The position numbers and the translations under genes are program-made. From a virus, in the IMG/VR virus record IMGVR_UViG_3300017917_003379: a DNA stretch of 64,000 bases; one strand, given 5' to 3'. Shown here in pieces: positions 17,259 to 62,625 of the stretch. Positions within the stretch are counted from its first letter, which is position 1. The number at the start of each line of letters is the position of its first letter. The notes under the pieces were generated by a model, which made no database searches, was not told where the DNA came from, and saw nothing but the letters and a program-made list of their open reading frames with translations.

Positions 17259-17483
17259 ATGAAGTGTATTAAAAATATAAAAACTGGAGAAATTGTTAGG
17301 GTTGAAGATAAATTGGCTCACCAAACTGTAGGTATTACTTGGCAATATATTTCTAAATCTGAATGGAAAGCAGCCACTAGAGTAGTAACTGAAAAACAAG
17401 AAGTAGAAGCTGAAAAGAAAGAAAAAACTGTGAGTGAAAAGGCTGTTAAACGTTCTAAACTTAAATCAAAACAAAGAAAATAA
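17259..17483 (+). CDS. Hypothetical basic protein
   Basis: 74-aa ORF, MKCIK..W.YISKSEWK. Confidence 0.6.
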   Translation: MKCIKNIKTGEIVRVEDKLAHQTVGITWQYISKSEWKAATRVVTEKQEVEAEKKEKTVSEKAVKRSKLKSKQRK

Positions 17484-17484
17484 T

Positions 17485-36156: not shown

Positions 36157-36159
36157 GTT

Positions 36160-36774
36160 ATGAATAAACAAAGACTACAATATTTAGCAAACATATATCC
36201 TAAACCAGGAATAAATGATTTTGGATATATAATTGAACTAAAAAGAGAACAACTTATAGATACAATAGAAAAACCAAAAATCCCCCAAATTAAACTACTT
36301 AGAGAATACACTGAAAAGACAAGAAAATATATGGGGGTTGAACCGATAATAAGTGAATCAAATCCAAACAATGCTTATCCTATTAAAATAATATATAAAG
36401 ATAACAATCAAATTACCTGGTCATGTAAATATAAAGATGATCATGAAATGAGAATGGTTCTTAGATTAGTATCTAATAAGACATATGAGTTCCTATTTAT
36501 GTTTGAAGAAAGTAAAACATATTCAAGTCAAGAATATAAACCTGAAGGAAAAAATTATATAGATACTTTGGATAAGTGTATAAAAGATTATGTATTACCT
36601 TTTATAGATAAAGAACCCATAGGAACCTTTTTATATTTTAATTGTTATGATGAAGATGGTAAAGGATATATTAGAAGAAGAACATTTATGAACCTAATTA
36701 ATAAATACGTTGATAAAAATCATTATATAATAGAAGAAGATAATTTAGATATTAACATACAAAAAATAAAATAA
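36160..36774 (+). CDS. Hypothetical protein (paralog of 9670..10200)
   Basis: Shared C-terminal motif; sits between two GT4 genes. Confidence 0.55.
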   Translation: MNKQRLQYLANIYPKPGINDFGYIIELKREQLIDTIEKPKIPQIKLLREYTEKTRKYMGVEPIISESNPNNAYPIKIIYKDNNQITWSCKYKDDHEMRMVLRLVSNKTYEFLFMFEESKTYSSQEYKPEGKNYIDTLDKCIKDYVLPFIDKEPIGTFLYFNCYDEDGKGYIRRRTFMNLINKYVDKNHYIIEEDNLDINIQKIK

Positions 36775-36779
36775 GTTAT

Positions 36780-38084: not shown

Positions 38085-38136
38085 ATGAATAATACCGGTG
38101 CTGTAATTTATACATTTCAAAATAACACATTAAATT

Positions 38137-38529
38137 ATGAAAGAATCACTTATCATATGCCCACGATGCGGAAGTAACGCGTGTCATGAAGCATCAAATG
38201 AAAAATTTACTATGTGGAGTTGTTTCGGATGTGGGTTTACATCCAACTCTACAATGACAGATGAACATATTTCTCAAGTAGAAGAAACATTACCTGAATT
38301 ATATAAAGCATTAAAATTTAAAGACGAAAAAGGATATCATTGGTATCCCTTAGCTTTAACATTTGATGATAAATCCATGGTATTTGCTGAAGGCACCTCT
38401 ACATTAGACTGGAAATGGTCAGCTATACAATCTAAAAATGAAAAACCAGATATGACTACTAAAAAAGAATTTGAAGAACGTGACTTTATGGAAGCACTTG
38501 ATTATGTAGGATACTTTAACCAAAAATAA
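38137..38529 (+). CDS. Zinc-ribbon hypothetical protein
   Basis: CPRC...CFGCG. Confidence 0.55.
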   Translation: MKESLIICPRCGSNACHEASNEKFTMWSCFGCGFTSNSTMTDEHISQVEETLPELYKALKFKDEKGYHWYPLALTFDDKSMVFAEGTSTLDWKWSAIQSKNEKPDMTTKKEFEERDFMEALDYVGYFNQK

Positions 38530-38533
38530 ATTT

Positions 38534-39160
38534 ATGTCAACTATTAGTTTTGCAATAACTGCATATAATGAACACAATGAATTAGAACGTTTGTTGAATC
38601 AAATATTCAAAATTATTAAACCTGAAGATGAAATAGTACTTCAACTAGATACTAAAGCAACTGATGAAGTAAAAAATATAGCTAATAAACATAATGTTAA
38701 TACTCCTTTTGAATATCATAGAATAATTAAATCATTAGATGGTGATTTTGCATCATTTAAAAATAATCTTAAACAACATTGTACAAGAGATTGGATTATA
38801 TTTCTAGATGCAGACGAATATTTAAGTGATGGTTTAAAAAATAATCTCCATGAAATGCTCAAAATAAATAAAGGTTTAGTTGATGTTATTGCTTTACCTC
38901 GTATTAATACTGTTGAAGGCTTAACTCGTGATCATATTGACAAATGGAAATGGTTTGTTGATGAAAATAATTGGATTAACTATCCTGACTATCAACTCCG
39001 TATCTGTGCTAACAAACCAGAAATAAATTGGATTAATAAAGTACATGAGCGTTTATCTGGTTGGAAAACAATTGCTAACTTACCCCAAGGATATGATTTG
39101 ATACATCCTAAAACAATTGAACGCCAAGAAAAACAAAATCAATTTTACAACACATTATGA
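38534..39160 (+). CDS. Glycosyltransferase family 2
   Basis: ITAYNE, LDADE, PD.Q.R, VHE. Confidence 0.88.
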   Translation: MSTISFAITAYNEHNELERLLNQIFKIIKPEDEIVLQLDTKATDEVKNIANKHNVNTPFEYHRIIKSLDGDFASFKNNLKQHCTRDWIIFLDADEYLSDGLKNNLHEMLKINKGLVDVIALPRINTVEGLTRDHIDKWKWFVDENNWINYPDYQLRICANKPEINWINKVHERLSGWKTIANLPQGYDLIHPKTIERQEKQNQFYNTL

Positions 39161-40194
39161 AAATATTAGTTACAGGAGCGGGTGGATTAATAGGTTCTGA
39201 AGCAGTGGATCATTATTGTTACCAAGGACATAGTGTATACGGAATTGAAAATAACCAACGTCAAATATTCTTTGGGGAAAAAGGTAGTACGTTGTCTCGT
39301 CTTTCTCAATTAAAAGAAAAACATAATAACTTTACTAATTTTGAAATAGATATTAGAGACAAAGAAGTATTATTGTCTTTATTTAAACATATAAAGTTTG
39401 ACGTAATAATTCACACTGCTGCTCAACCATCACATGATAAAGCAGCCTCTATTCCCTTTGCTGATTTTGAAACAAATGCTAACGGTACTTTGCATTTGTT
39501 AGAAGCAGTTAGACAAACAAATAAGGATTGCATATTTGTTCATATGTCTACAAATAAAGTATATGGTGATAAACCAAATACATTAAATTTGATTGAACTA
39601 AATACTAGATATGAATATGCTGATCCTGAATATAAAGAAGGAATCAATGAGTTATTTTCAATTGATCAATCCAAACATTCTTTATTCGGCGCAAGCAAAG
39701 TAGCAGCAGACATAATGGTTCAGGAGTATGGACGTTATTTTAATATTCCAACTTGTATTTTGAGAGGAGGATGTTTAACTGGAGAAAACCATAGTGGAGT
39801 AGAATTACATGGTTTTTTAAATTATCTTGTAAAATGTAATATCCAAGAAATACAATATAATGTGTTTGGATACAAAGGCAAACAAGTAAGAGATAATATT
39901 CACTCATCAGATGTTGTACAATTTATAGATTTATTTATTGCTAATCCACGTGTTGCTGAAGTATATAATATAGGTGGAGGTAAAGATAATTCATGTTCTA
40001 TTCTAGAAGCATTTACTTTAGTAGAACAAATATCAGGTAAAAAAATGATCTATGAATATATAGATGAAAATAGAATAGGAGATCATATCTGTTATTATAG
40101 TGATTTATCTAAAATAAAAACTCATTATCCTCAATTTGGAATTACTAAAAATCTTAATTATATTATAGAAAACATTTATTTAAAATTAAAATGA
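39157..40194 (+). CDS. NAD-dependent sugar epimerase (CDP-paratose 2-epimerase-like)
   Basis: GAGGLIG, AAQPSHD, STNKVYG, FGASK, GKQVRDN. Confidence 0.88.
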   Translation: MKILVTGAGGLIGSEAVDHYCYQGHSVYGIENNQRQIFFGEKGSTLSRLSQLKEKHNNFTNFEIDIRDKEVLLSLFKHIKFDVIIHTAAQPSHDKAASIPFADFETNANGTLHLLEAVRQTNKDCIFVHMSTNKVYGDKPNTLNLIELNTRYEYADPEYKEGINELFSIDQSKHSLFGASKVAADIMVQEYGRYFNIPTCILRGGCLTGENHSGVELHGFLNYLVKCNIQEIQYNVFGYKGKQVRDNIHSSDVVQFIDLFIANPRVAEVYNIGGGKDNSCSILEAFTLVEQISGKKMIYEYIDENRIGDHICYYSDLSKIKTHYPQFGITKNLNYIIENIYLKLK

Positions 40195-40718
40195 GTAAAA
40201 GATACTTACATGTAGGATGTGGAAATGTTATTTTACCCCGCCCCTTTGAAAATCTAGACACCAGACCATTGGAAGGAGTAGATCATGTGTCGGAAGCATT
40301 TCCTCTTCCCTTTAACGACAATACATTTGATTTATTATATTCTTCTCATGTTCTAGAACATTTTGAAAAAGCTAAAACACAAGAAATAGTAAATGAATGG
40401 GTCCGCGTTATAAAACCTGGAGGTATTATTCGCTTATCAGTTCCTTCTTTAGAAAATCTTATTAAGATTTATCAAGTATCTGGTGATATAGAGTATATTA
40501 TAGGTCCGTTAATGGGCGGTCAAACGTACCTTCAAAATTTCCATTATAATATGTTCGATAAGAAAAAACTAACAGAATATTTAGAAAACGCTGGTTGTGA
40601 AGCTGTTCATCCTTGGGATTATAGAAGAACATCACATAGTAAATTTTTTGATTTTTCACAAGCAACTACTTGGGAAATTCCTATTAGTTTAAATTTAGAA
40701 GCTAGAAAATCATTGTGA
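40191..40718 (+). CDS. SAM-dependent methyltransferase (type 11)
   Basis: HVGCG, SHVLEH, RVIKPGG. Confidence 0.85.
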   Translation: MSKRYLHVGCGNVILPRPFENLDTRPLEGVDHVSEAFPLPFNDNTFDLLYSSHVLEHFEKAKTQEIVNEWVRVIKPGGIIRLSVPSLENLIKIYQVSGDIEYIIGPLMGGQTYLQNFHYNMFDKKKLTEYLENAGCEAVHPWDYRRTSHSKFFDFSQATTWEIPISLNLEARKSL

Positions 40719-41530
40719 TGAAAGTATTTGCTAAATTCTACGAATCAAAACAATTTATTGATATAGCTAATGAATTAAAATCAATAAAATGGTCATTATT
40801 TGTAGATGATATACCTACTTCTCAAGAAGACCTATCAGAACTAAATGTATTAGTATTATTAGAACCAAATGAATATTTCAAATTACATGATTGGGCTATA
40901 CAAAATAAACACTTATTTTCCTTAATATTAACATGGAGTGATAAAGTATTAAATAATTGTGAAAACGCAGTATTTTTACCTTTCGGAACTACTTGGCTTA
41001 ATAAAGAACAATATACTAGAAAATATGAAAAGAAGTTTCAAGTATCTCATGTTAGAGGACCCTTATTAAAAACCCAAGGACATGCTCTAAGATTTGAATA
41101 CCATGACAGAACCCCAGAATTAAAAATTTCTCATAAATCTTGGTTAACAGCAGGTATAAGAGAAAAAATAGAAACCTGTGCTGAGGCAAAAACGGAATTA
41201 TTTGGAGATGCTCAGTTCGGAGTGGTAATTGAAAATACCAGCCATAGAGGGTATTTTACTGAAAAAATAATGGAAATGTTTTTATTAAAAACAATTCCAG
41301 TATATTGGGGTTGTTCAAATATAGGAGATTTTTTTAATATAGAAGGGATTATTACATTCAATAATGTTGATGATTTAATATTCATTTTAAATAATTTAGA
41401 TGAAAATTATTATAGTTCAAAAATAAAAGTTATTGAAGAAAATTATAATGTAGCTATGAATTATTTAAGTGTTGAACATAATATTATAAATAAAGTAACA
41501 GAAATATTTAAATATAATAATTTAATATGA
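40718..41530 (+). CDS. GT10 (alpha-1,3-fucosyltransferase-like) glycosyltransferase
   Basis: IEN....GYFTEKI......IPVYWG. Confidence 0.8.
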   Translation: MKVFAKFYESKQFIDIANELKSIKWSLFVDDIPTSQEDLSELNVLVLLEPNEYFKLHDWAIQNKHLFSLILTWSDKVLNNCENAVFLPFGTTWLNKEQYTRKYEKKFQVSHVRGPLLKTQGHALRFEYHDRTPELKISHKSWLTAGIREKIETCAEAKTELFGDAQFGVVIENTSHRGYFTEKIMEMFLLKTIPVYWGCSNIGDFFNIEGIITFNNVDDLIFILNNLDENYYSSKIKVIEENYNVAMNYLSVEHNIINKVTEIFKYNNLI

Positions 41531-42078
41531 AACATTTTTATCAAGAACTAGGAGAAAACTGGTTTACATATCCTGGATTGTATTCAATGGTAGTAGAGAA
41601 ATTTCCTACTAATTCTCATTTTGTTGAAGTAGGAGTATGGAAAGGAATGAGTGCAGCTTATATGGCAGTTGAAATAATCAATTCAGGAAAAAATATTAAG
41701 TTTGATTGTGTAGATAACTGGGAATATATAGAAGAACAAAAGGAAATTCCAGAACATATGTTTGAAGGGCTATATGAAACTTTCTTAAAAAATATAGACC
41801 CAGTAAAGCATATAATAACACCTGTAAGAGAACTATCATGGGAAGGTGCTAAACATTATAAGGACAATTCATTAGATTTTATTTTTATTGATGCCGCTCA
41901 TGATTATGAAAGCGTAAAAAAAGATATTAATGCTTGGTTTCCTAAATTAAAAAAAGAAGGAATTATTGCCGGACATGATTATACGTGGTGTGATGATGTG
42001 AAGAGAGCAGTTAACGAATTTTTTGAAGGTAAGTCTATTTATGAAAATGAAGGATGTTGGATATATCCAAATGAATAG
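41527..42078 (+). CDS. Class I SAM methyltransferase (Methyltransf_24-like)
   Basis: EVGVWKG, FIDAAHDYE.V..D, GHDY. Confidence 0.87.
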   Translation: MKHFYQELGENWFTYPGLYSMVVEKFPTNSHFVEVGVWKGMSAAYMAVEIINSGKNIKFDCVDNWEYIEEQKEIPEHMFEGLYETFLKNIDPVKHIITPVRELSWEGAKHYKDNSLDFIFIDAAHDYESVKKDINAWFPKLKKEGIIAGHDYTWCDDVKRAVNEFFEGKSIYENEGCWIYPNE

Positions 42079-42081
42079 TAT

Positions 42082-42948
42082 ATGATTCAAATAGCAATAC
42101 ATGCATTGCCTCAAGAAATAGATAGATTAGAAGAAATTCTAATTCAACTAAAAAATAATTCTAACCATTTATTTTTAGAAAATAATATTATAGTTGATGT
42201 TATATTAAACCTTAATTTAGTTGAATGGAATAAATCTATCATACCAAAATCTTTTTTTATTAATAAATTTTACAATTTAGAAAAACTAACTCAGACATGG
42301 GCTAAAACTAAATTTGAAATTAATGAAGATGGTATAATACAAGGATGTGTTTCACATCGTAGAAAAATAACTAATGAAACACAAGCGGATGCTGTACTAT
42401 TACTTGATACAGATATAATATTTAGTCCAACTTTATTATTTCATTTATTTTGTTCGATTGATGTTTTAAAAAATATTACTCCATATTACATATTAACCCC
42501 ACAAATAACCCCAATGTGGGATAATAGTTGGGATGTAATAGTTAATGATCATTTTAAAAATGATGGTATTTACTTTCAAAATAGAGATTCATACAAGTAT
42601 GCTCAATGTTTAGGAGAAGTTAATTTAAAACCAATTAATCATTTTAAATTTGGAGGAGGATGGGCTACGTTAATTAGTACCCCATTACTTAAACATATTG
42701 GGATACCTGAATCTTTAGGACACTATGGTTTAGAAGACACATATATTATGTTATGCTCTCAAATAATGAAGCAAAAAGGAATGAATGTTACTCAATTTGT
42801 TCTTGAAAATGAAGTAATTTCTGAAGACCATTTATTTAGATTTAATCCATATAAAGATTACATATCAGTAATAGATAAAAGAGAAGAATTTAAACAAATA
42901 GCTCATAATAATTTTCAAAACGAAATAGATAAATTTAAGAAAAAATGA
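42082..42948 (+). CDS. GT-A fold glycosyltransferase-like protein
   Basis: LDTD (DxD), GHYGLEDT. Confidence 0.65.
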   Translation: MIQIAIHALPQEIDRLEEILIQLKNNSNHLFLENNIIVDVILNLNLVEWNKSIIPKSFFINKFYNLEKLTQTWAKTKFEINEDGIIQGCVSHRRKITNETQADAVLLLDTDIIFSPTLLFHLFCSIDVLKNITPYYILTPQITPMWDNSWDVIVNDHFKNDGIYFQNRDSYKYAQCLGEVNLKPINHFKFGGGWATLISTPLLKHIGIPESLGHYGLEDTYIMLCSQIMKQKGMNVTQFVLENEVISEDHLFRFNPYKDYISVIDKREEFKQIAHNNFQNEIDKFKKK

Positions 42949-43832
42949 AATATAATAGACCATTAGTATTTGGAGCAGCCGGAATGTTAGGAACTACACT
43001 TAAAAATGTAGCAGATGAAGTTAAATTTATTTTAACAGACAAAGATACAAGTACAGGATTAGAATTTTGTGATATACGAGATTTAACCTTAACTACTAAT
43101 ATAGTAAACAAATACAATCCTGATATAATTCTTAACTTTGCCGCTTTAGTTGATCTTGAATATTGCGAAACTGAAAAAGATGATTGTTATTTAACTAATA
43201 CTATAGCAGCTATACATCTATTTAATTTAGCCAAAGACAAAAATGTCCCTTATGTATTCATAAGTACTGCTGGTATATTCGGAAATGATAAAGAATTCTA
43301 TACAGAAGATGACCAACCTAAACCACTAAGTGCTTACGGTAAAAGCAAATATTACACTGAACAGTTACTTAAAAACCAAGGATATGAAAAATACTGGATT
43401 TTCAGAGCAGGATGGATGATGGGAGGGGGACCAGAAGTTGATAAAAAATTTGTAAATAAAATTATGAAGCAAATTAAAGCAGGATCAACAGAATTAAATG
43501 TTGTAGATGACAAACTAGGAGTACCCACCTATACTAAAGATTTTGCAAAATCTATTTTGAAACATATAGAAACGGATTTACCTTTTGGGCTATATAATAT
43601 GGTTAGTCAAGGAGAAGCAAGTAGATACGATACTGCTGTAGAAATAAATAACTATCTTGGGCTTAATTTAAAAATAAATAAAGTAGATAGTAATTTCTTT
43701 AAGGAAGAATATTTTGCTCAAAGACCCTTTTCTGAAAAATTAATTAATAAAGCATTAATAGATTTAAATAGAAACTATATGAGAGATTGGAAAGTATGTT
43801 TACATGAATATTTAGATGAATTTTATAAATAA
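42945..43832 (+). CDS. dTDP-4-dehydrorhamnose reductase-like SDR (RmlD family)
   Basis: GAAGMLG, NFAA, IST, YGKSK, PTY..D. Confidence 0.85.
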   Translation: MKYNRPLVFGAAGMLGTTLKNVADEVKFILTDKDTSTGLEFCDIRDLTLTTNIVNKYNPDIILNFAALVDLEYCETEKDDCYLTNTIAAIHLFNLAKDKNVPYVFISTAGIFGNDKEFYTEDDQPKPLSAYGKSKYYTEQLLKNQGYEKYWIFRAGWMMGGGPEVDKKFVNKIMKQIKAGSTELNVVDDKLGVPTYTKDFAKSILKHIETDLPFGLYNMVSQGEASRYDTAVEINNYLGLNLKINKVDSNFFKEEYFAQRPFSEKLINKALIDLNRNYMRDWKVCLHEYLDEFYK

Positions 43833-43839
43833 TACATAT

Positions 43840-44478
43840 ATGAAAAACGTATACGATATTACAGCAGAATTTGAAAAGCGCCTAGCAGAATACACAGGAG
43901 CTCCTTATGTAGTTACTCTTGACAATCAAAGCAATGGATTATTTTTAGCTTTAATGTATGAAAATGTCAAAGGAATAGAAATTGAAATTCCCTCTCGAAC
44001 ATATCCTTCAGTACCTTGTGAAATAATTCACGCCGGTGCTAAAGTTAAGTTTAAAGAAGTAAAAGGTAAAACAATTAAAGGAGCATATCAATTATCTCCT
44101 ACTAATGTTTGGGACAGTGCTTTACGTTTTACAGCAGACATGTATGTGCCTGGAACTCATATGTGTATTTCATTTACTGGCCCTTATAAGCATTTTAAAT
44201 TATCCAAAGGTGGAGCTATATTGACTGATAACTATGATGCATATCTGTGGTTTAAACGGGCCAGATATAGTGGACGTCGTGAATGTTCATACCATGAAGA
44301 TCATTTTGATATGTTAGGGTGGAACTTCTATATGATGCCTGAATTAGCAGCTAGAGGATTATTGTTAATGAATCAGTTTTATAATGGAGAAGGTAAACCA
44401 AAACATAATGATGATTTAGAACTACCATATCCGGATTTGTCTAAATTTGAAATATACACAAAAGCAAATAGAGAATAG
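43840..44478 (+). CDS. DegT/DnrJ/EryC1 family PLP aminotransferase (short form)
   Basis: FE..LAEY.G, TYPSV, DSA, SF...K..GGAILT, GWNFYM. Confidence 0.8.
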   Translation: MKNVYDITAEFEKRLAEYTGAPYVVTLDNQSNGLFLALMYENVKGIEIEIPSRTYPSVPCEIIHAGAKVKFKEVKGKTIKGAYQLSPTNVWDSALRFTADMYVPGTHMCISFTGPYKHFKLSKGGAILTDNYDAYLWFKRARYSGRRECSYHEDHFDMLGWNFYMMPELAARGLLLMNQFYNGEGKPKHNDDLELPYPDLSKFEIYTKANRE

Positions 44479-44501
44479 GCAAAATAGATTTGCTATATTT
44501 A
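44478..44501 (+). promoter_or_regulatory. Phage promoter inside the glycan island
   Basis: GGCAAAA-N9-TATATTTA upstream of ATG 44508. Confidence 0.55.
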
Positions 44502-44507
44502 AAAAAT

Positions 44508-45758
44508 ATGAAAAAAATATTAATTCTGGGAGCTAACCCAGAAACTATACCTCTTATAAAAACAGCGAAATCTATGGGGTTGTATACTATAGTTACAGAC
44601 CCCGATCCAAAGGCTCCTGCAAAAATTGAAGCGGACAGAGGAATCAATATTAATGGAATGGATGTAGAGGCGTTAGTGGATTTCAGTAGACAAGAAAAAA
44701 TAGATGGTATTTTGGTTGGTGTAGCAGATAGATTAATTGAACCCTATCAAAAAGTATGTGAAATTCTTAATTTACCATGCTATGGCAATAAACATCAATG
44801 TGAAGTCCTCACAAATAAAGGAAAATTTAATGATCTATGTAAAAAATATAATATTTCAACTATTCCTTCATTTTCTCTTTATAAAAAAGATATTAATGTA
44901 AATCTAGAAAATGTAATATATCCTGTTTTTATAAAACCCGTTGATAGAAATTCTGGAAAAGGAATGTCTATAGCGTATAATGAAACAGAATTAAGAGAAG
45001 GAATTGAGAAAGCTTTCAATAACACAAATGGTGATTATATCTTATTAGAAAGATATATGACATGTGAGGATATTTTGGTAAGTTACACTATTGTAGATGG
45101 TGAACCTATATTATCCGCCATAGCAGATAGATATACTTGTAAAGAACAAAATAAAACAAGTCAAGTATGTTTAGGAGCAGTTTATCCTTCAAATCTATTA
45201 AACGTTTATATGGATAAAGAGCATTCTAAAATGGTTAGAATGTTAAAAGGTATAGGTTTAAAAAATGCTATTCTTACAATATCGGCTTTTGTTGAAAATG
45301 ATAATTTTTATTATTATGATCCTGGATTTAGACTTCAAGGTGAAGCTCCTAATCTCCATATGGAAAACATAAATAAATTTGATCAAAAGAAGTTTTTAAT
45401 AGATATAGCTTTAAACAATAATTTAGTTGGTAAAAACGAAATAACTAAAGCTGATTTTCAAAATAAATATGCTGCTACTATTTGGGTTCTTCTAAAAAAA
45501 GGTACAATACATCAAATAACTGGGTTTGAAAAAATAGAAAAAGATCCTTCTGTGTTTCATATATCAAGACGTCTATTTGAAGGTGATATAGTTAATGAAG
45601 AAATGACAGGTACTGAAAGTCAAGTTATGGCTAGAATTTATATATGTTGTTCAACAAAGCAAAAATTAAAAGATAAAATACTAGAAATTCAAAATACAAT
45701 ACAGGTATTTGATAGTGAAGGTAACAATCAACTTTTTAATAAGTTTATTTTGAAATAA
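44508..45758 (+). CDS. ATP-grasp ligase
   Basis: KILILGA, NK, YPVFIKPVD.NSGKG, ERY. Confidence 0.85.
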   Translation: MKKILILGANPETIPLIKTAKSMGLYTIVTDPDPKAPAKIEADRGININGMDVEALVDFSRQEKIDGILVGVADRLIEPYQKVCEILNLPCYGNKHQCEVLTNKGKFNDLCKKYNISTIPSFSLYKKDINVNLENVIYPVFIKPVDRNSGKGMSIAYNETELREGIEKAFNNTNGDYILLERYMTCEDILVSYTIVDGEPILSAIADRYTCKEQNKTSQVCLGAVYPSNLLNVYMDKEHSKMVRMLKGIGLKNAILTISAFVENDNFYYYDPGFRLQGEAPNLHMENINKFDQKKFLIDIALNNNLVGKNEITKADFQNKYAATIWVLLKKGTIHQITGFEKIEKDPSVFHISRRLFEGDIVNEEMTGTESQVMARIYICCSTKQKLKDKILEIQNTIQVFDSEGNNQLFNKFILK

Positions 45759-45769
45759 AATATCTAAAT

Positions 45770-46528
45770 ATGAATAAAGAAACATTTGTTATAGCCGGAG
45801 GCACTAGAGGAGTAGCTAAACAAGTAGTAATTGAACTTGTTAAAATGGGAAATAATGTTGTTTTTGGTGATCTTGGTGACAACGGTAATGAAAAGGAATT
45901 TATAACTGAACTAAAAGAATATAAAGGTAATGCTTATTTTATTTTAACAGATGTAACAAAAATAACTGACTGTGAGCGTTTATTTAGAATTGCTTATGAA
46001 ATATTTGGTCGCATTGATGGATTTTTTAGCTATGCCGGAATTACACCTGCTCAATCTTTATTAGAATGTACTGAAGATGTACATGATGATATATTTAATG
46101 TAAATGTGAAAGGAGCATTATTTTGTTCTAAATATGCTGTAAAATATATGAAAGAAAATAATGGTGGATCAATAGTATTTACTGGTTCTCCACACTCGTG
46201 GGCAGGGGAATTTGATAGAGTTTCTTATGCTTGCTCAAAAGGAGCCATTGTTACTTTAGCAAATCATATAGCTAAAAATTATGGTAAACATAATATACGA
46301 TCCAATTACATAACAATGGGTTGGACACCCACAGAAGGAGAATTATCTTTAAGAGAAAGCCAAGGAATGTCTAAAGAAGAATTAAAAAAATATGCCTCAG
46401 AATTTATCCCTATGGGGCGCATGAATGAATATGATGATATTGTTCCTGCAATAATCTATTTATTATCTAACAAATCAAAAATGGTATCTGGATCTAATAT
46501 TAGAATTACAGGTGGTTGGTTTATGTAA
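45770..46528 (+). CDS. Classical SDR oxidoreductase
   Basis: GGTRGVA, GRID, YACSKG, MGR, GSNI.I.GG. Confidence 0.88.
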   Translation: MNKETFVIAGGTRGVAKQVVIELVKMGNNVVFGDLGDNGNEKEFITELKEYKGNAYFILTDVTKITDCERLFRIAYEIFGRIDGFFSYAGITPAQSLLECTEDVHDDIFNVNVKGALFCSKYAVKYMKENNGGSIVFTGSPHSWAGEFDRVSYACSKGAIVTLANHIAKNYGKHNIRSNYITMGWTPTEGELSLRESQGMSKEELKKYASEFIPMGRMNEYDDIVPAIIYLLSNKSKMVSGSNIRITGGWFM

Positions 46529-46538
46529 TTAAAAAGTT

Positions 46539-47747
46539 ATGAGTAATCCTTTAGTAAGTATAATAATTCCTATATATAATAGTGAAGCATTCCTGGATAA
46601 ATGTATCCAAAGTGCAAGAAATCAATCATATAAAAATTTAGAAATTATTCTTGTTAATGATGGTTCAACAGATACTTGTAAAGACATATGTGGGAGATAT
46701 GCTTCTATTGATAGTAGAATTAAACCTATTCATAAAACTAATGGAGGATTAGTAAGTTCTAGAAAAGCAGGACTTAAAGCATCAACAGGAGAATATGTTT
46801 TATACATTGATGGTGATGATTGGATTGAATCAGACACTATAGAACATTATGTATATCATGCTTTAAAATATAATGCTGATGTTGTTGTAGCTTCTCATAT
46901 AGTAAACCTAGAAGGAAGAAAAGACATTTTGTCTAACCACATCTCTTCAGGAATTTATAATAAGGGTGAACTCAAATCGATAGTCTATCCTAAAATGTTA
47001 TATACAGGAAAATTTTCTCAATTTGGGATATTTTCATATTCGTGGGGAAAATTATATAAAAAAGAAATATTATTAGAAAATCAATTAAACGTTGCTGAAG
47101 ATATAACTATTGGAGAGGACGCTTTATGTTTATATCCAACATTATTAGATGCTAATACTTTAGTTGTTTTAGAACAACCTTATTATCATTATAGACAAAG
47201 AGCAAATTCATTAATCAAAACTTTAAGAACAATTGAATTACCTAAAATGCAAAAAGTCTATAATAACCTTAAAAATATATTTTCAAATAAAGGTGTTCTA
47301 GACATAATGTTGCCTCAACTTCAATACTACATTTTAAGTTTATTAATAATCAATACAGAAGGTCCTAATCCAAACGATACAACAACATTATATCCTTTTA
47401 ATAATATTAGTCTTGAAAAGGACATAGTCATATATGGTGGAGGCACATTTGGGCAACATTTATATAAAAAAATATTAAAAAATAATAAATATGCCCTTCA
47501 AGCATGGGTAGATGAAAAACATAAACATTATTCTAAATTAAATCTACCAGTAACAGGTTTTAATAATATTAAATCTATTAAATACGATGCTATTTTAATA
47601 GCATTAATTGATGAGGATAACTCTAATATAGCTTTTTCTAAATTAATAGAGAATGGAGCCGACAAAGAAAAAATAATTCAACTTCCCTACTATAACCAAA
47701 AAGAAAATATACAAAATCTTTTATTAGAATATAAAATCAATTTATAA
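46539..47747 (+). CDS. GT2 glycosyltransferase with C-terminal Rossmann-like domain
   Basis: SIIIPIYN, VNDGSTD, IDGDD, GED, YRQR; YGGGTFG. Confidence 0.9.
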   Translation: MSNPLVSIIIPIYNSEAFLDKCIQSARNQSYKNLEIILVNDGSTDTCKDICGRYASIDSRIKPIHKTNGGLVSSRKAGLKASTGEYVLYIDGDDWIESDTIEHYVYHALKYNADVVVASHIVNLEGRKDILSNHISSGIYNKGELKSIVYPKMLYTGKFSQFGIFSYSWGKLYKKEILLENQLNVAEDITIGEDALCLYPTLLDANTLVVLEQPYYHYRQRANSLIKTLRTIELPKMQKVYNNLKNIFSNKGVLDIMLPQLQYYILSLLIINTEGPNPNDTTTLYPFNNISLEKDIVIYGGGTFGQHLYKKILKNNKYALQAWVDEKHKHYSKLNLPVTGFNNIKSIKYDAILIALIDEDNSNIAFSKLIENGADKEKIIQLPYYNQKENIQNLLLEYKINL

Positions 47748-47748
47748 T

Positions 47749-48567
47749 ATGGAATTAATCTTCTATGCTGGATCAAGTCTATTAGAAGGGCCCATTTGGG
47801 ATCCAAATAACAAATTAATATATTGCGTATCAATAGAACAAGGAATAATCTATCAGATTAATCCTAATTCAGGAAGAGTGCAATCTTATATTACTGATGG
47901 GAGTGTAGGATGTGTAGCTCTAATGGAAAATGGAAATCTTATATCTGCAGAAAAGGGAGGCATATATATTATTAACCCGGAAACAAGAGAAAAAACATAT
48001 TTAACTCAACTTGAATCAGATAATAATTTACGATATAATGATGGAAAATTAGACCCAGTAGGTAGATTTATTGTGGGAACTAAAAGTGAAAAAGATTATT
48101 TTATTGAAGAAACCGTTGTAAAAGGTAAATTATTTTCATATCATGATGGAGTTTACAAAGTATTACTAAATGATCTACTAATATCAAATGGAATTGGGTT
48201 TTCTCATGACAAAGAAAAAATGTATTTTATAGATAGCCCTACAAAGAAAGTAAATCAATATAAGTACGATATAAACACAGGAGAAATAACATTTGAAAAA
48301 CATATTATTGAAATTGACGGCAATGGTATCCCAGATGGAATGTGTGTTGATTTAGATGGAAATATATGGGTAGCAGAATGGGAAGGAGGGAGAGTTCGTA
48401 AGTGGGATGTTAATACTGGAAAGGTATTAGATGAAATAATAGTACCTTGCCCAAGAGTAACTTCATGCTGTTTAGGTGGAGAGGACTTTAAAGAGTTGTA
48501 TATTACAACAGCTAAAGATAACAGCAATAATCTTGGAGGTGCATTGTTCAGAAAAAAACTAAATTAA
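47749..48567 (+). CDS. SMP-30/gluconolactonase family lactonase
   Basis: EGP.W, RYNDG..DP.GR, SNG.GFS, PDGM.VD, VTSC..GG. Confidence 0.92.
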   Translation: MELIFYAGSSLLEGPIWDPNNKLIYCVSIEQGIIYQINPNSGRVQSYITDGSVGCVALMENGNLISAEKGGIYIINPETREKTYLTQLESDNNLRYNDGKLDPVGRFIVGTKSEKDYFIEETVVKGKLFSYHDGVYKVLLNDLLISNGIGFSHDKEKMYFIDSPTKKVNQYKYDINTGEITFEKHIIEIDGNGIPDGMCVDLDGNIWVAEWEGGRVRKWDVNTGKVLDEIIVPCPRVTSCCLGGEDFKELYITTAKDNSNNLGGALFRKKLN

Positions 48568-48570
48568 AAT

Positions 48571-49152
48571 ATGATTATCCCTTCTAAATTTGATAATGAT
48601 ACTTTTTCTCTCACTCGAGAACATCTTAATTTGTTCATTAACCGAGTAGCAAAAGAGTATGGGAGTGTAAATAAGAAATTACTTGAAATAGGACCTCAAG
48701 ATAGATCCGAAGTTAGAGTAGCATTCAATATGTGTAATATTGAAACTCTAGATTTAGTACCTGATTATAATCCTGATATTGTAGGTGATATTACAAAATA
48801 CAACTCTCATATACAAGATTCAACCTATGACATTATAACATGCTTAGAAATACTTGAACATACTATCAACCCGTTTTCAGCTATTGAAGAGCTTAGACGT
48901 ATAACAACAGATGGTGGATTAATATTGTTTTCAGCTCCATTAAATTGGAGAATACACGGTCCTGTTCCGGATTGTTGGAGATTTACTGAGTTTGGATGGA
49001 AAATACTATTAAAAGATTTTGATATTCTTGAAATAGATAAGTTAGAAACACCAGATAGAAATCTATTTCCGATTAAATACAATATATTAGCAAAATGCAA
49101 TAAATCAAAAAATATAGATGTTTATTCTATGAAATTTGAACCTCTAAAATAA
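48571..49152 (+). CDS. SAM-dependent methyltransferase
   Basis: LEIGP, GDI, EILEH, HGP..D.WRFT. Confidence 0.82.
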   Translation: MIIPSKFDNDTFSLTREHLNLFINRVAKEYGSVNKKLLEIGPQDRSEVRVAFNMCNIETLDLVPDYNPDIVGDITKYNSHIQDSTYDIITCLEILEHTINPFSAIEELRRITTDGGLILFSAPLNWRIHGPVPDCWRFTEFGWKILLKDFDILEIDKLETPDRNLFPIKYNILAKCNKSKNIDVYSMKFEPLK

Positions 49153-49158
49153 CAACTT

Positions 49159-49872
49159 ATGAAGTTACATATATTTTATTGTCACTATAATATAACAGGT
49201 ACAGACCATAAAGGTAGACCTCGTTGGTTTGATTACGAAAAATGTTTTATTAATCTTTTAAATACTATTGAAGGTAAAAATAATATAGAACTCCACGTGA
49301 TAATGGATGGTACTATTGAAAACAACTGGATAAGCAAATATAAAGATAAATACATTGCTCATGAAATTGTTACAACTCATGATATGGATTCTGTAACAAG
49401 GGGAGTATATCCTATTATAAGAAAAACAAAATGTAAAGATACAGATCTTGTCTATCTTTTAGAAAATGATTATTTACATGTTGATGATTGGGTAGATAAA
49501 ATTTTTGATATTTTTCAAACATTTGGGGGGTTAAATTATGTATCTTTATACGACCATGGAGATAAATACTGGCATCCTAACTATGATGATTTAGTGTCTA
49601 AAATATTTGCTTCTAATACACATCATTGGAGAACAATGATATCTACTTGTGGTAGTTATGTTACAACTAAAAAAATATTCGATGAAGATTTTGATGATCA
49701 TACTGGGGTTACAATTCCTATAGGTGATCACCATAAATGGGTATTTTTAAATGAAACTAAAGGTAGATTTATTTTAACGCCTGTTCCTGGTTTATCTACC
49801 CATTGTATGGAAGCTTTCTTATCACCTACTATAGATTGGGAAAAAATAAATAATAAAACAAAAACAAATTAA
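49159..49872 (+). CDS. GT-A fold glycosyltransferase-like protein
   Basis: YLLENDYLH, LYDH.DKY, PGLSTH. Confidence 0.7.
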   Translation: MKLHIFYCHYNITGTDHKGRPRWFDYEKCFINLLNTIEGKNNIELHVIMDGTIENNWISKYKDKYIAHEIVTTHDMDSVTRGVYPIIRKTKCKDTDLVYLLENDYLHVDDWVDKIFDIFQTFGGLNYVSLYDHGDKYWHPNYDDLVSKIFASNTHHWRTMISTCGSYVTTKKIFDEDFDDHTGVTIPIGDHHKWVFLNETKGRFILTPVPGLSTHCMEAFLSPTIDWEKINNKTKTN

Positions 49873-49875
49873 AAT

Positions 49876-50670
49876 ATGATATCATTAATTATTCCCACAT
49901 ATAGAAACCCTGAATATTTAGACATCTGCTTAAAATCAGCAATTGATAACCAAGTAAACAAAAATGAAATTATCGTTTCTGTTGATGGACATATTGAAGA
50001 AAGTCAATATGTTTTAGACAAATATAAAGACAGTATTGTTATTTTAGATTTAGGAGAAAATCAAGGATTTCAAACTTCCCACAACTTAGCTGTCATGAAT
50101 GCTAATAATGAAACCATTTGTATAATAAATGATGATAATGTTTTATGTAAAGAGTGGGATGTACTTATAGAACAAGATTTTGATTTAAATAAAGTAATGA
50201 CTATAGAACAAATCGAACCTGTTGGGCCTAGCATATTTGGTTTTCATATCAAAGATTTTGGTAAAACTCCTAAAGATTTTGATTATGAGGCTTTTATCAA
50301 ATATGAATTAACTATTAGAGAAAACAAACTAACTAAAGATGGAGGAATATTTCCTTTTGTTATTTCAAAGAAAAATTACATGATAGTAGGTGGATTTGAT
50401 ACTTTATATCCATCACCATATGTATGTGATTGGGACTTTTTTCTAAAATTAGATCTCAATAATGTAGAATTTTACAAAACACATAATTTACATCTTTATC
50501 ATTTTGGTAGCACAGTATTAAAAAAAGGAATCGACAAGGACAAATTTGCCTCTTCTCATAACCCAGCAGCAGAAACTTTCTATTACAAATGGGGAATGTA
50601 CCCTCACTTATTTGAAAATAACAGCCATAAACCAAAACAAACAATTATTAAGGGGATAAAATATGAGTAA
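49876..50670 (+). CDS. Glycosyltransferase family 2
   Basis: IIPTY, NDDN, GGFD..Y, DWD, YHFGS. Confidence 0.85.
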   Translation: MISLIIPTYRNPEYLDICLKSAIDNQVNKNEIIVSVDGHIEESQYVLDKYKDSIVILDLGENQGFQTSHNLAVMNANNETICIINDDNVLCKEWDVLIEQDFDLNKVMTIEQIEPVGPSIFGFHIKDFGKTPKDFDYEAFIKYELTIRENKLTKDGGIFPFVISKKNYMIVGGFDTLYPSPYVCDWDFFLKLDLNNVEFYKTHNLHLYHFGSTVLKKGIDKDKFASSHNPAAETFYYKWGMYPHLFENNSHKPKQTIIKGIKYE

Positions 50671-51289
50671 ATATAAAGCCATAATACCATGTGCTGGCTT
50701 TGGAACTAGAATGAAGATGCTCCCTCATCAAGCTAAAGAATTATTACCAGATGAGGATGGTAATCCAACTATAAATTGGTCTTTAGATATATGCAAAAAA
50801 TATAATATTGATCCTATAGTAGTTACTAGACCTGAAAAGCAGGAATTTAATAGTTTTTTATCTCAAAAAGGAATAACTTATGTACTTGATGAAGGAAAAT
50901 CAGTAGGGACATCTGTACTACAAACAAAAAAATATTGGGGAGATTACAATATAATGTTGCTTCCTGATACTAGATTTGAATATGATAGTAAATTTTTTAT
51001 TAATATTTTTAAATCTATGGAAGTAGGTAATGATTCAATGTTTGCTTTATTTAGTGTAGAAGACTATTCTAATTGGGGAATAATATGTAATAATACATTT
51101 TATGAAAAACCCAAAAGACAATTTGTAAAAGAAGATAACGCTTTTGCTTGGGGAGTAATAGGGTTTAGAAAAGAATATGGGGAAACTTTATTTAGCAGTT
51201 ACAATTTAACATCACCCCCTTTACTTTTATCTAACCCAGGATATCTATTTATTGAGAATTTTAGAGATATTAGTCGAAAATATGTTTAA
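50663..51289 (+). CDS. Sugar-phosphate nucleotidyltransferase-like protein
   Basis: IIPCAGFGTRM....KELLP, LPD. Confidence 0.8.
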   Translation: MSKYKAIIPCAGFGTRMKMLPHQAKELLPDEDGNPTINWSLDICKKYNIDPIVVTRPEKQEFNSFLSQKGITYVLDEGKSVGTSVLQTKKYWGDYNIMLLPDTRFEYDSKFFINIFKSMEVGNDSMFALFSVEDYSNWGIICNNTFYEKPKRQFVKEDNAFAWGVIGFRKEYGETLFSSYNLTSPPLLLSNPGYLFIENFRDISRKYV

Positions 51290-51318: not shown

Positions 51319-51861
51319 ATGCCTAAGCAGCATCGTTCTAAATCAGAATCATTAAGTCGAATTATAACTCTTGGTGATATAGAAACTGATACAGTAAACG
51401 ATATTATTCAATTTATACATGAAATAAACGAAGAAGACGCTAAAAAACAAATAACAAACCCAATAAAACTCATAATCAACTCAGGCGGTGGAGAAGTATA
51501 CAGTGGACTTGCTTTAATAGATACAATTGATAACTCGCAGATTCCAATCCATACTATTTGTTATGGACGAGCTATGTCAATGGGGTTAATAGTATTTGCT
51601 GCTGGTCATTATAGAACAGCAAGTAAATATGCTACATTTATGTATCATGAAGCAATATATGAAATAGAAGGTAAAGTAACATTTCATAAACAAGAATTAG
51701 CAGAAGCACAACGTATTGATGAAATATGCAACCAATATTTAATTTCTAAAACTAAATTCACAGATAAGTTATTAAAACCATATAGAGATAAACAAACTGA
51801 GTGGTATTTTGATGTAAAAACAGCACAAAAATATGGATTAGTTGATGAGGTTATAAAATAA
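51319..51861 (+). CDS. clpP: Second ClpP-like protease
   Basis: INSGGG, AMSMG, MYHE, EWYF, YGLVDEV. Confidence 0.82.
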   Translation: MPKQHRSKSESLSRIITLGDIETDTVNDIIQFIHEINEEDAKKQITNPIKLIINSGGGEVYSGLALIDTIDNSQIPIHTICYGRAMSMGLIVFAAGHYRTASKYATFMYHEAIYEIEGKVTFHKQELAEAQRIDEICNQYLISKTKFTDKLLKPYRDKQTEWYFDVKTAQKYGLVDEVIK

Positions 51862-54369: not shown

Positions 54370-54446
54370 CGGGTTGTTGGGGAGCCCGGTTACCCCGCCT
54401 GCTTTGGGAGCAGGAGAACTCGCAGGTTCAAATCCTGCCAACCCGA
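54370..54446 (+). tRNA. tRNA-Pro(TGG)
   Basis: Acceptor CGGGTTG/CAACCCG; anticodon arm CCTGC-TTTGGGA-GCAGG; T arm GCAGG-TTCAAAT-CCTGC. Confidence 0.92.
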
Positions 54447-54453
54447 CTAATTA

Positions 54454-54527
54454 GGTCCGGTAGCTCAGCTGAATAGAGCAGCAGCCTTCTAAGCTGCGGG
54501 TCATTGGTTTGAATCCAATCCGGATCA
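54454..54527 (+). tRNA. tRNA-Arg(TCT)
   Basis: GGTCCGG/CCGGATC; GCAGC-CTTCTAA-GCTGC. Confidence 0.92.
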
Positions 54528-54531
54528 CAAC

Positions 54532-54613
54532 GCCCTGATGGTGGAATTGGTAGTCACGCTAGACTTAGGATCTAGTATCGAAAGATGTGAGAGTTCGAGT
54601 CTCTCTTAGGGCA
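54532..54613 (+). tRNA. tRNA-Leu(TAG)
   Basis: GCCCTGA/TTAGGGC; CTAGA-CTTAGGA-TCTAG; long variable arm. Confidence 0.92.
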
Positions 54614-54643
54614 CGAAATTTTTTTATATGAAACAGTAAACAC

Positions 54644-58143: not shown

Positions 58144-58320
58144 ATGGAGATAAAATTCAAAGTAGGAGACAAAGCATGGAAACCAAAAGGATATAAATTT
58201 CCTTGCACAATTGTATCAGTTTTTACTACTACCAAAGGTGACATTAGAGTAGTTGCTGAAATGGATAATTACGGTTTATTGCATATTTTTAATGAGCAGC
58301 AACTTGAACTTTGTGACTAG
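58144..58320 (+). CDS. R67/DfrB-like (type B DHFR fold, SH3-like) protein, 58 aa, not in ORF track
   Basis: FKVGDKAWKPKGYKFPCTIV...E...GLLHIF...LE aligns by eye to the R67 core with a single gap. Confidence 0.6.
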   Translation: MEIKFKVGDKAWKPKGYKFPCTIVSVFTTTKGDIRVVAEMDNYGLLHIFNEQQLELCD

Positions 58321-58375: not shown

Positions 58376-58678
58376 ATGAACTACAAAACGTTTTCCAAAA
58401 TTGTTTCCATTCTTGAAACAGAACATAATCGGTTGAGTATTTTGTATAAACAAAAAGTCGATCTTACTAATTTTGTTGATCCATATCATACTGTTATTAC
58501 TGAGTTGCTTATTTCTATATATGGTAACGAAGGATATGGTTGGTTTTCTTGGTTTTGCGATGAGAATGATTTCGGTAAAGGAAATTTAACAGCATATGAT
58601 GAGCATAAAAATCGTATTTGCTATGATGTTCGTTCTACTTGGGAATTTTTGGAAGAATATTATAAATCTAAAAATTAA
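58376..58678 (+). CDS. Hypothetical phage protein
   Basis: W.SWFC.ENDFG. Confidence 0.55.
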   Translation: MNYKTFSKIVSILETEHNRLSILYKQKVDLTNFVDPYHTVITELLISIYGNEGYGWFSWFCDENDFGKGNLTAYDEHKNRICYDVRSTWEFLEEYYKSKN

Positions 58679-58810
58679 ATAAAATATGTTCATACCAATA
58701 GACTATAAAACAATTGAAACTTACTTTAGAAAAGGACATCCTTTTTTACGATGTGTAAAATACAAATATATAAAAAGACAAAATAATAAGTAAGTAATAA
58801 TTGAAAAGTT

Positions 58811-59125
58811 ATGAACAACGAAAAAATAAAACAAGACTTAGTGTCAAGGTTGGAAAAATACCAATCCGAAACGTTGACCGAGTCAACACTTCGTAAACTT
58901 CGTGAAGATTTACAAAACTTGCTTGACAATCATGTTTCTTCCGACGAAGGTTTGCGGGGTAAACAGTTCCCAATTGAAATTGAAAATGAATTGGGTAAAT
59001 GGAGAATAGAGGAAAGCGGAGAAACTTTCTTCTGGCCTAAAAATTCCACAAAATACATTGAAGTTAACATGACAATTGAATCTTCGGAGGATTTGAGCAA
59101 TAAAACAATAGAAAGTTATGAATAA
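58811..59125 (+). CDS. Hypothetical protein
   Basis: 104-aa ORF with AAGTTATG leader. Confidence 0.5.
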   Translation: MNNEKIKQDLVSRLEKYQSETLTESTLRKLREDLQNLLDNHVSSDEGLRGKQFPIEIENELGKWRIEESGETFFWPKNSTKYIEVNMTIESSEDLSNKTIESYE

Positions 59126-60134
59126 ATTAGATTTAGATTATCAAGCACTCCTTCAAGATATACTTGACAACGGAGTCCGTAAAAATGACCGTACTGGGAC
59201 AGGTACACTATCGGTATTCGGTAGACAAATCCGCCATAAAATGAGTGAGGGATTCCCGCTCCTAACAACAAAGAAGATGTACTTTAAAGGTATTGTAACC
59301 GAACTCCTTTGGTTCTTACGTGGTGATACCAATATCAAATACCTTGTAGATAATGATTGTCATATTTGGAATGGGGATGCGTATAAGAATTGGTCTAAGT
59401 ATTATACAGAAAAAAATAATGGGATAGAACCATGGCCAATGGATGTTTGGTTAGAAAGGTTCAAAACAGATGATGAGTTTGCTAAGAAGTGGGGTGAATT
59501 AGGACCAATTTATGGTAAGCAATGGAGAAATTGGAGAAAGGCTAATGGAATTGGTTACAGTGGCGCAATAACTATGGACGGTACAAGAACAAATAATGAA
59601 CCGCAAGTTACTTATGGTTCAATAGACCAAATAAAAAACCTAATCAACGATCTTAAAGCAAGCCCAGACTCAAGACGATTAATGGTTAATGCTTGGAATG
59701 TAGGTGAGTTAGACCAAATGGTTCTTCCACCTTGTCACTTCAGTTGGCAGTGTTATTCACATGAACAAGATGGAAAACGTTATTTAAGTTTAGCCTGGAG
59801 TCAACGTAGTGTAGATTGTGGATTAGGGTTACCATTTAATATTGCTAGCTATGGTTTACTGTTAGAAATAATTGCAAAAACAGTAGATATGATCCCCTAT
59901 GAATTAATTGGTAATCTTGGTGATTGTCATATTTACAATAACCACATAGATGGGGTAAAACAACAATTAGAAAGAAGTGCATTTAAACTTCCTAAATTAA
60001 AACATTTAAGAAGTGATGATAAATATAAGTTACTAGGTGAATTTCCTTCATTGTGGAATGAATTAAAAATATCTGATTTTGAATTAGAGAATTATCAGTC
60101 ATACCCCCCAATAAAACTTCCCTTATCAAATTAA
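59118..60134 (+). CDS. thyA: Thymidylate synthase
   Basis: DRTGTGT, FPLLTTK, ELLWFL, LGPIYG.QWR, SRR, LPPCH, QRSVD..LGLPFN, HIY. Confidence 0.96.
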   Translation: MNKLDLDYQALLQDILDNGVRKNDRTGTGTLSVFGRQIRHKMSEGFPLLTTKKMYFKGIVTELLWFLRGDTNIKYLVDNDCHIWNGDAYKNWSKYYTEKNNGIEPWPMDVWLERFKTDDEFAKKWGELGPIYGKQWRNWRKANGIGYSGAITMDGTRTNNEPQVTYGSIDQIKNLINDLKASPDSRRLMVNAWNVGELDQMVLPPCHFSWQCYSHEQDGKRYLSLAWSQRSVDCGLGLPFNIASYGLLLEIIAKTVDMIPYELIGNLGDCHIYNNHIDGVKQQLERSAFKLPKLKHLRSDDKYKLLGEFPSLWNELKISDFELENYQSYPPIKLPLSN

Positions 60135-61420: not shown

Positions 61421-61506
61421 ACCCCGGTGGTGAAATTGGTAGACACGCCGGACTTAAAATCCTGTGGGCCGAAAGGCTCGTGCCGGTTCAAATCCGGCCC
61501 GGGGTA
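61421..61506 (+). tRNA. tRNA-Leu(TAA)
   Basis: ACCCCGG/CCGGGGT; loop CTTAAAA; long variable arm; GCCGG-TTCAAAT-CCGGC. Confidence 0.9.
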
Positions 61507-61533
61507 CTTAAATATAGTCGTTTGACTATAACT

Positions 61534-62530: not shown

Positions 62531-62605
62531 GGACTCTTAGCTCAGTTGGTTAGTAGCAGCAGACTCATAATCTGCAGGTCGAGGGTTCAAGTCCCTCAGA
62601 GTCCA
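62531..62605 (+). tRNA. tRNA with CAT anticodon (probably Ile2, possibly elongator Met)
   Basis: GGACTCT/AGAGTCC; GCAGA-CTCATAA-TCTGC; no initiator features. Confidence 0.85.
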
Positions 62606-62625
62606 CAACATTTTTAATTTTGGTT

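Follow-up and report, generated by a model that had tools for sequence, protein, structure and literature searches.

We analysed a 64,000-nucleotide stretch of viral DNA (IMG/VR record IMGVR_UViG_3300017917_003379; hereafter the window) which contains a 58-codon open reading frame (ORF) upstream of a thymidylate synthase gene (Table 1). The ORF and its translation, as given in an initial annotation of this DNA, were matched exactly by the sequence. The same annotation described the gene as unannotated, which is true of the ORF track it was based on but not of JGI/IMG, where the exact protein is a called gene; public sources label such proteins “hypothetical protein”. The identical protein is recorded on a 157.8 kb contig, and the window is part of a larger genome. 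There is no obvious Shine-Dalgarno sequence upstream of position 58144. The gene lies within a run of genes, all on the plus strand, of a large lytic-type phage encoding PolB, RNR, a DnaB-type helicase, GroEL, two ClpP proteins and five tRNAs. The closest PolB from a cultured phage was that of Microcystis phage Mel-JY01, at only 35% identity.

Table 1 Features of the window, with positions, strand and supporting matches.
Feature	Position	Strand	Support and remarks
Ribonucleotide reductase	10566-12416	+	PHROG 367 3.4e-131
PTPS/QueD-family protein	14309-14773		Pfam PF01242 8e-16; weak NCBIfam QueD match
ClpP paralog	17434-18048		Pfam ~1e-25
dUTPase / dCTP-deaminase-family enzyme	20126-20644	+	Pfam DCD 2e-11, dUTPase 4e-5; NCBIfam NF002598 3.4e-24, below the model cut-off
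GroEL	26352-27983		PHROG 5725, 2e-152
GIY-YIG + NUMOD3 homing endonuclease	33767-34381
Glycosyltransferase and methyltransferase region	34696-51289		~17 kb
ClpP paralog	51319-51861		Pfam ~1e-25
tRNA genes	54370-54614, 61421-61507, 62531-62606		Pro-TGG, Arg-TCT, Leu-TAG, Leu-TAA, Met-CAT
DfrB-type (R67-like, SH3-fold) DHFR gene	58144-58320	+	58 aa, cluster II “LHIF” group
Two small ORFs	58376-59125	+	100 aa and 104 aa; no Pfam or PHROG assignment
thyA, ThyA-type thymidylate synthase	59118-60134	+	338 aa; Pfam PF00303 3e-97; PHROG 160 1.6e-107

Several other features of the window are of note. The PTPS/QueD-family protein would act in a pterin or 7-deazaguanine pathway and would thus represent a second pterin-related gene of the phage. 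The ~17 kb region encodes glycosyltransferases, several SAM methyltransferases, a DegT-type aminotransferase fragment and a nucleotidyltransferase, which suggests a sugar-modification or surface-glycan pathway. The tRNA genes flank the region containing the DfrB-type gene and thyA.

Relatives of the 58-aa protein were abundant. In a word-indexed search we found near-length homologs in 479 clusters and longer homologs in 231 clusters (both at 90% identity), and an exhaustive HMMER profile search returned 1,081 representatives at 50% identity (E ≤ 1e-3). At least 270 IMG/VR viral contigs, the longest being 464 kb, encode a relative, and the sources of the family are mostly marine metagenomes, including those of Tara. 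In a set of 50 unique codon sequences from homologs, change at synonymous sites had reached saturation (median pS 0.74) and pN was 0.12, with a dN/dS of ~0.09 among the unsaturated pairs. Proteins of the DfrB clade were 76–92% identical to each other, compared to 43–56% for the adjacent ThyA proteins in the same loci. As synonymous sites are saturated and pN is low, this identity of 76–92% is explained by purifying selection which is both old and strong, rather than by a recent spread. The ORF at 58144-58320 is a genuine gene under selection. In an alignment of 40 diverse relatives (A2), nine positions were invariant: G8, K13, G16, Y17, F27, R35, E39, L46 and H47. The residue equivalent to Lys32 of R67 was a lysine in 377 of 378 family proteins, and the motif LHIF was found in at least 365 of the 378, the exceptions being mostly truncated fragments.

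In many of the relatives (for example P0217, P0283 and P0264) the DfrB domain is joined to N- or C-terminal extensions which are unrelated, and these proteins are 103–248 aa long. None of the extensions of these fused relatives received a Pfam assignment. In P0217 a second stretch matches the family profile, and an N-terminal segment containing GD looks SH3-like by eye. No full DfrB-ThyA fusion was found among the 120 best longer relatives (103–248 aa).

We compared the protein to R67 (DfrB1), the clinical type II, trimethoprim-resistant dihydrofolate reductase (DHFR) with which it had initially been aligned by eye. Searched alone, the window protein had no match in Pfam (E ≤ 10), PHROGs, NCBIfam or PDB sequences, and a narrow profile (A1) found nothing in the PDB. 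These single-sequence misses are weak counter-evidence, because the experimentally active orthologue A0A6J5PTB3 (described below) also lacks an NCBIfam match. When the profile made from the 40 diverse relatives (A2) was searched against 177,635 distinct PDB sequences, R67 DHFR was the sole match below E = 1, with E-values of 3.4e-4 for the Q67H mutant (2P4T) and 0.0096 for the wild type (1VIE). The mutant heads the list because the family natively has a histidine at this position. Alignment of the family profile with the R67 core by hhalign gave a probability of 94% (E 1.5e-7, 53 columns). The Pfam model DHFR_2 (PF06442), which had been proposed as a check, did not match the window protein alone but did match 11 of the 40 relatives (best E 8.3e-5); no other family was matched by more than two of them.

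HMMER and hhalign reproduced the register of the by-eye alignment residue for residue. The matched pairs (window protein/R67) were F5/F24, G8-D9/G27-D28, K13/K32, G16/G35, I23-V24/I42-V43, T29/T48, E39/E58, G44/G64, I48/I68 and L54-E55/L74-E75, so the positive charge at the Lys32 position is present; of these R67 residues, Lys32, Gly27-Asp28, Gly35, Ile42-Val43, Glu58, Gly64, Ile68 and Leu74-Glu75 are conserved. The one gap which had been claimed is indeed single and falls at R67 His62, and the reading of LHIF in place of VQIY also held, with Leu46-His47-Ile48-Phe49 aligned to Val66-Gln67-Ile68-Tyr69 of the pore strand. Both motifs follow the order nonpolar, polar, nonpolar, aromatic. Identity to R67 was 21–26%. 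The window protein differs from R67 in having LHIF, with a native histidine which is the residue engineered in Q67H, in lacking the interface residue His62 and the disordered N-terminal tail, and in being encoded by a phage-borne, thyA-linked gene and not on an integron or plasmid.

An AlphaFold2 monomer model (pLDDT 92) predicted four strands forming an SH3-like barrel of a size similar to that of R67 (~58 residues; PDB 1VIE, 2RK1, 2P4T). In VIA-align, R67 chains took the top seven ranks (Z 9.4–9.9, 55–58 residues, 21–23% identity), and Foldseek gave a TM-score against R67 of 0.83 in both directions (rmsd 1.9–2.0 Å, E ~5e-3). Chromo, Tudor and KOW domains scored Z 8–9.4 with identities of ~10%. 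As R67 lies within 1 Z unit of these domains the fold alone is inconclusive, whereas the fold and the sequence profiles together suffice. The top match in BFVD, a library of viral structures, was A0A6J5PTB3 (TM 0.95, rmsd 0.6 Å). On the profiles, the structure and the 77% identity to this tested enzyme, the window protein is a true member of the R67/DfrB-type family, as the initial annotation had claimed.

One of the relatives, P0337, is UniRef100_A0A6J5PTB3 (CAB4174422.1, UFOVP972_42), from an uncultured Caudovirales phage. By BLASTP the window protein was identical to its N-terminal domain at 44 of 57 residues (77%, E 1e-30). A0A6J5PTB3 belongs to DfrB cluster II, has the B4 motif LHIF and has been purified (Lemay-St-Denis et al. 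2025, PMC12486381). In that study it was tetrameric by SEC and was modelled by AlphaFold-multimer as a DfrB1-like tetramer, it conferred trimethoprim resistance in E. coli, and it had a kcat of 1.07 per s and a KM(DHF) of 160 µM (PMC12486381, Table 1), the resulting kcat/KM of 0.007 per s per µM making it the least efficient DfrB tested (PMC12486381). The enzyme was inhibited by NADPH above 12.5 µM and preferred two NADPH over NADPH plus DHF; its authors describe it as “more of a binder than a catalyst”, and the primary function of DfrB domains was argued to be binding (PMC12486381). The same authors reported that Lys32 is the most conserved residue of active DfrBs and that the B4 pattern nonpolar/polar/nonpolar/aromatic supports catalysis. 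A DfrB1-like homotetramer with a positively charged central tunnel (B2-B2 monomer interface, L1/L3 dimer-dimer interface) is a further feature of the catalytic cluster, and in their set its prediction agreed with activity in 139 of 148 cases. All four of their viral cluster II homologs were near a ThyA gene, in genomes without FolA, and phage DfrB was proposed to be the probable provider of the DHF reductase step in viral dTMP synthesis (PMC12486381).

The BLASTP E-value of 1e-30 to this cluster member supplies a cluster II network link (E < 1e-6), and the B4 motif of the window protein is identical to that of the active enzyme. Judged by sequence, the window gene is therefore assigned to the published catalytic DfrB cluster II, which makes superfluous the alternative raised at first, that it encodes a relative of the ancestral DfrB fold. 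The two proteins share phage origin, linkage to ThyA and the Lys32 equivalent in addition to the LHIF motif. However, A0A6J5PTB3 has 174 aa with a C-terminal extension of ~115 residues, and the window protein is a bare 58-aa domain. The sources also differ: the samples from which published DfrBs originate are mostly soil or plant, with 15% from water (PMC12486381), and the relatives of the window protein include sequences from Tara and other marine metagenomes.

We also observed that residues 75–114 of A0A6J5PTB3 resemble residues 87–126 of the window ThyA (59376-59495), with 17 of 42 positions identical (pairwise E 4e-4) and a shared motif KTDxEFxxKWG; a similar stretch, KSD..F..DWG, is visible by eye in P0273. 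The window ThyA has 338 aa against 266 positions in the Pfam model, and the A0A6J5PTB3-like segment lies in a long insertion at approximately residues 85–170. One possibility is that A0A6J5PTB3 has kept in its C-terminal extension a remnant derived from ThyA; another is that this extension serves for docking. The ORF at 58811-59125, which ends in “...IESYE” as A0A6J5PTB3 does, was considered as a split-off version of this extension and was rejected, as BLASTP detected no similarity; neither was there BLASTP similarity between the extension and the ORF at 58376-58678.

The initial annotation had placed the gene near thyA, and we can confirm that thyA follows it on the same strand after an interval of 797 nt. 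The window ThyA scored 314.5 bits against the NCBIfam equivalog TIGR03284 (cut-off 108), its translation contains readable PPCH (with the catalytic Cys), SRR and PFNIASY motifs, and its gene is uninterrupted. The second of the two small ORFs between the genes (58811-59125) overlaps the start of thyA by 8 nt. These ORFs were present in 2/81 and 0/81 related loci respectively and are not conserved partners.

The 81 related loci comprise 80 from IMG/VR and one from Pelagibacter phage Kolga, and the thyA counts given here include divergent and interrupted ThyA. Co-occurrence with thyA had been suggested as a check: thyA was found within 5.4 kb in 31/81 loci and was always on the same strand. The distance was <100 nt in 11 loci, <1 kb in 24 and <3 kb in 30, and in one locus (L005) the DfrB gene overlaps the start of thyA by 17 nt. 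As thyA was downstream in 24 loci and upstream in 7, the linkage outlasts rearrangement. Of the 34 loci in which each flank of the DfrB gene was 5 kb or longer, 21 had thyA nearby and 13 did not; by our estimate, which assumes a single-copy gene and a genome of ~150 kb and treats loci which are not phylogenetically independent, ~7% would be expected by chance. ThyA was the only widely shared neighbour, with each of the other window neighbours being found in at most 10 of the 81 loci.

In a group of marine loci without a nearby thyA, such as L016:8387-10177, the DfrB gene is preceded by a dUTPase, an RFC-like clamp-loader subunit and a small zinc-ribbon-like ORF, all three identified by eye from motifs; this setting is that of replication and not of thymidylate synthesis. 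It should also be noted that thyA is interrupted in nine related loci (L004, L005, L007, L008, L029, L031, L033, L052 and L057), at three or more points: after residue ~92–104, ~131–139 and ~198–200. In L005:10161-12287 a 323-aa HNH-like endonuclease ORF lies between a 105-aa 5′ part and a 266-aa 3′ part of thyA. The interrupted thyA looks like the result of invasion by a mobile intron or homing endonuclease.

FolA (PF00186) was found in 0/10 related viral records, in agreement with the expectation that folA would be absent from such phages. Four of these ten records are 98–100% complete and all four contain ThyA, and two records which are 75–78% complete have neither ThyA nor ThyX. These two records, and the 13 loci with wide flanks but no nearby thyA, one of which has the DfrB gene in a dUTPase and clamp-loader module, speak against a strict coupling of the two genes. 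ThyX was found in 0/5 records, all of them incomplete. For the window itself, the statement that no FolA is present stands for the 28 ORFs scanned with Pfam, which include all plus-strand ORFs of 150–230 aa, with ORFs of <150 or 230–300 aa only partly covered; PF00186 (DHFR_1) matched neither the DfrB ORF nor the 27 others. This check extends over the 64 kb of the window, the genome being 158 kb or longer.

Several known systems may be compared to the window locus. The only cultured-phage homolog which we found in the phage collection was gp36 of Pelagibacter phage Kolga EXVC016S (QLF88482.1, hypothetical protein; L001:5713-6165). Over the C-terminal 54 residues it shares 47% identity with the window protein, and just 4 nt separate the end of its gene from the thymidylate synthase gene which follows. 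However, gp36 has 150 aa with an N-terminal extension, the phage is 48.7 kb, and its ThyA is short, divergent and 27% identical to that of the window. A DfrB-TS fusion (bit-GEM BBD027md-00173_03685; PMC12486381) likewise has a cluster II DfrB domain, with the motif LHIY, functionally coupled to ThyA, but as a covalent fusion in a bacterial genome and not as separate genes. T4 Frd and other FolA/DfrA-type phage DHFRs (PF00186) share the proposed role of thymidylate synthase partner and have an unrelated, monomeric Rossmann-like fold of ~160–190 aa. Unlike clinical DfrB1-DfrB10 (cluster I, mobile trimethoprim-resistance genes), the window protein has no VQIY motif and is not recognised by curated models, and in place of an integron or plasmid context its gene lies among replication and nucleotide-metabolism genes.

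Combining the predicted fold, homology and linkage found here with the tetramer and catalysis of the 77%-identical orthologue and of R67, we infer that the gene probably encodes a DfrB1-like tetramer which would hold NADPH and DHF in its pore and regenerate tetrahydrofolate by hydride transfer for the phage ThyA. Four 58-residue SH3-like barrels would assemble as a homotetramer around one central pore. The B4 strands (Leu46-His47-Ile48-Phe49) would line this pore, Lys13 at its mouth would grip the phosphate and glutamate tails, and NADPH and dihydrofolate would lie next to each other inside it. The second interface must differ from that of R67, since His62, a residue of the dimer-dimer contact in R67, is deleted here. 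During infection, the dUTPase / dCTP-deaminase-family enzyme would supply dUMP to ThyA, ThyA would oxidise its folate cofactor to dihydrofolate in making dTMP, and the DfrB-type enzyme would regenerate the cofactor, in a phage lineage without a FolA-type enzyme. The ribonucleotide reductase gene at 10566-12416 belongs to the same pathway context. Such folate recycling for ThyA in a FolA-less phage had been put forward in the initial annotation and fits the linkage we found, and the hypothesis is already present in the literature (PMC12486381). The enzyme would be expected to be insensitive to trimethoprim, as are all DfrB enzymes. In the Q67H mutant of R67 both ligands are bound much more tightly, and there is inhibition by both substrate and cofactor. 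With a histidine in place of R67 Gln67, tight ligand binding and inhibition by excess NADPH would thus be expected of the window protein, in agreement with the NADPH inhibition reported for A0A6J5PTB3.

Other explanations were weighed against DHF recycling. The ORF is short and has no obvious Shine-Dalgarno sequence, as might be the case for a chance ORF in AT-rich DNA; we regard the likelihood of this as negligible, given hundreds of homologs, saturated synonymous change with a dN/dS of ~0.09 and a confidently predicted fold (pLDDT 92), and the conservation rules out a non-gene. That the protein is a generic SH3/Tudor/KOW-like domain which binds nucleic acids or proteins, is unrelated to DfrB and resembles R67 by convergence or chance is very improbable. 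Small SH3-like barrels are found everywhere, the Z-scores of chromo, Tudor and KOW domains come near to the 9.9 of R67, the Foldseek E-value is only ~5e-3 and the lone sequence has no Pfam match. However, R67 was all that the profiles selected from the PDB, DHFR_2 matched 11/40 relatives, identity to R67 is 21–26% against ~10% for the other folds, and DHFR activity has been measured for an orthologue with 77% identity. The PDB profile search, hhalign and the identity to A0A6J5PTB3 effectively exclude a generic SH3/KOW protein, which had been named initially as the refuting outcome.

The main rival is a DfrB-fold tetramer which binds NADPH or nucleotides, as a cofactor reservoir or as an oligomerisation or docking partner of ThyA or replication proteins, and which reduces DHF only promiscuously. 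We consider this unlikely, although it is in keeping with the binding function argued for DfrB domains and with the preference of A0A6J5PTB3 for two NADPH, and was raised for A0A6J5PTB3 by the authors themselves (PMC12486381). Conservation in the clade (76–92% identity, dN/dS ~0.09, nine invariant residues) is far tighter than in the ThyA next to it (43–56%), which seems to be beyond the needs of a “rudimentary”, sequence-permissive catalyst, but tight conservation would also be expected where a symmetric tetramer uses each residue four times. Similarly, in many loci the gene sits in a replication or dUTPase module with no thyA close by, and many relatives have extra N- or C-terminal domains, but ThyA remains the sole widely conserved neighbour, often overlapping or <100 nt away. 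FolA was present in no related record and ThyA in every complete one, so that a DHF reductase of some kind is required unless it comes from the host, and DHF reduction by the orthologue A0A6J5PTB3 rescues trimethoprim-treated E. coli. A further reading holds that the LHIF clade of aquatic phages is more than a rudimentary DHFR: it would be closely optimised as a partner of phage ThyA, through a specific physical ThyA-DfrB complex or NADPH-gated regulation, and would be the main way in which large uncultured aquatic phages recycle DHF. Its proposed basis is the near-invariant surface, the native His at the Gln67 position, the dN/dS of ~0.09 and conservation far above that of ThyA, and we hold it to be speculative and rather improbable; if it were true, the four published viral cluster II examples would be a vast under-count.

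The idea of a phage DfrB-type DHFR, together with experimental proof for an orthologue with 77% identity, was published in 2025 (PMC12486381), and our analysis is a confirmation and extension of that work and not a discovery. For DHF recycling by the DfrB-type protein, which we take to be the probable function, the result gives a role to a “hypothetical protein” which recurs on hundreds of aquatic phage contigs, and it would close the thymidylate cycle in such phages, which have ThyA without FolA. Insensitivity to trimethoprim is intrinsic to DfrB enzymes, so the clade belongs to the natural environmental pool of such enzymes. The literature has four viral examples of the cluster II clade, whereas here relatives were found on at least 270 IMG/VR contigs and in 1,081 clusters (50% identity); our results show a very large and strongly selected phage family, far commoner in aquatic phages than the published examples imply.
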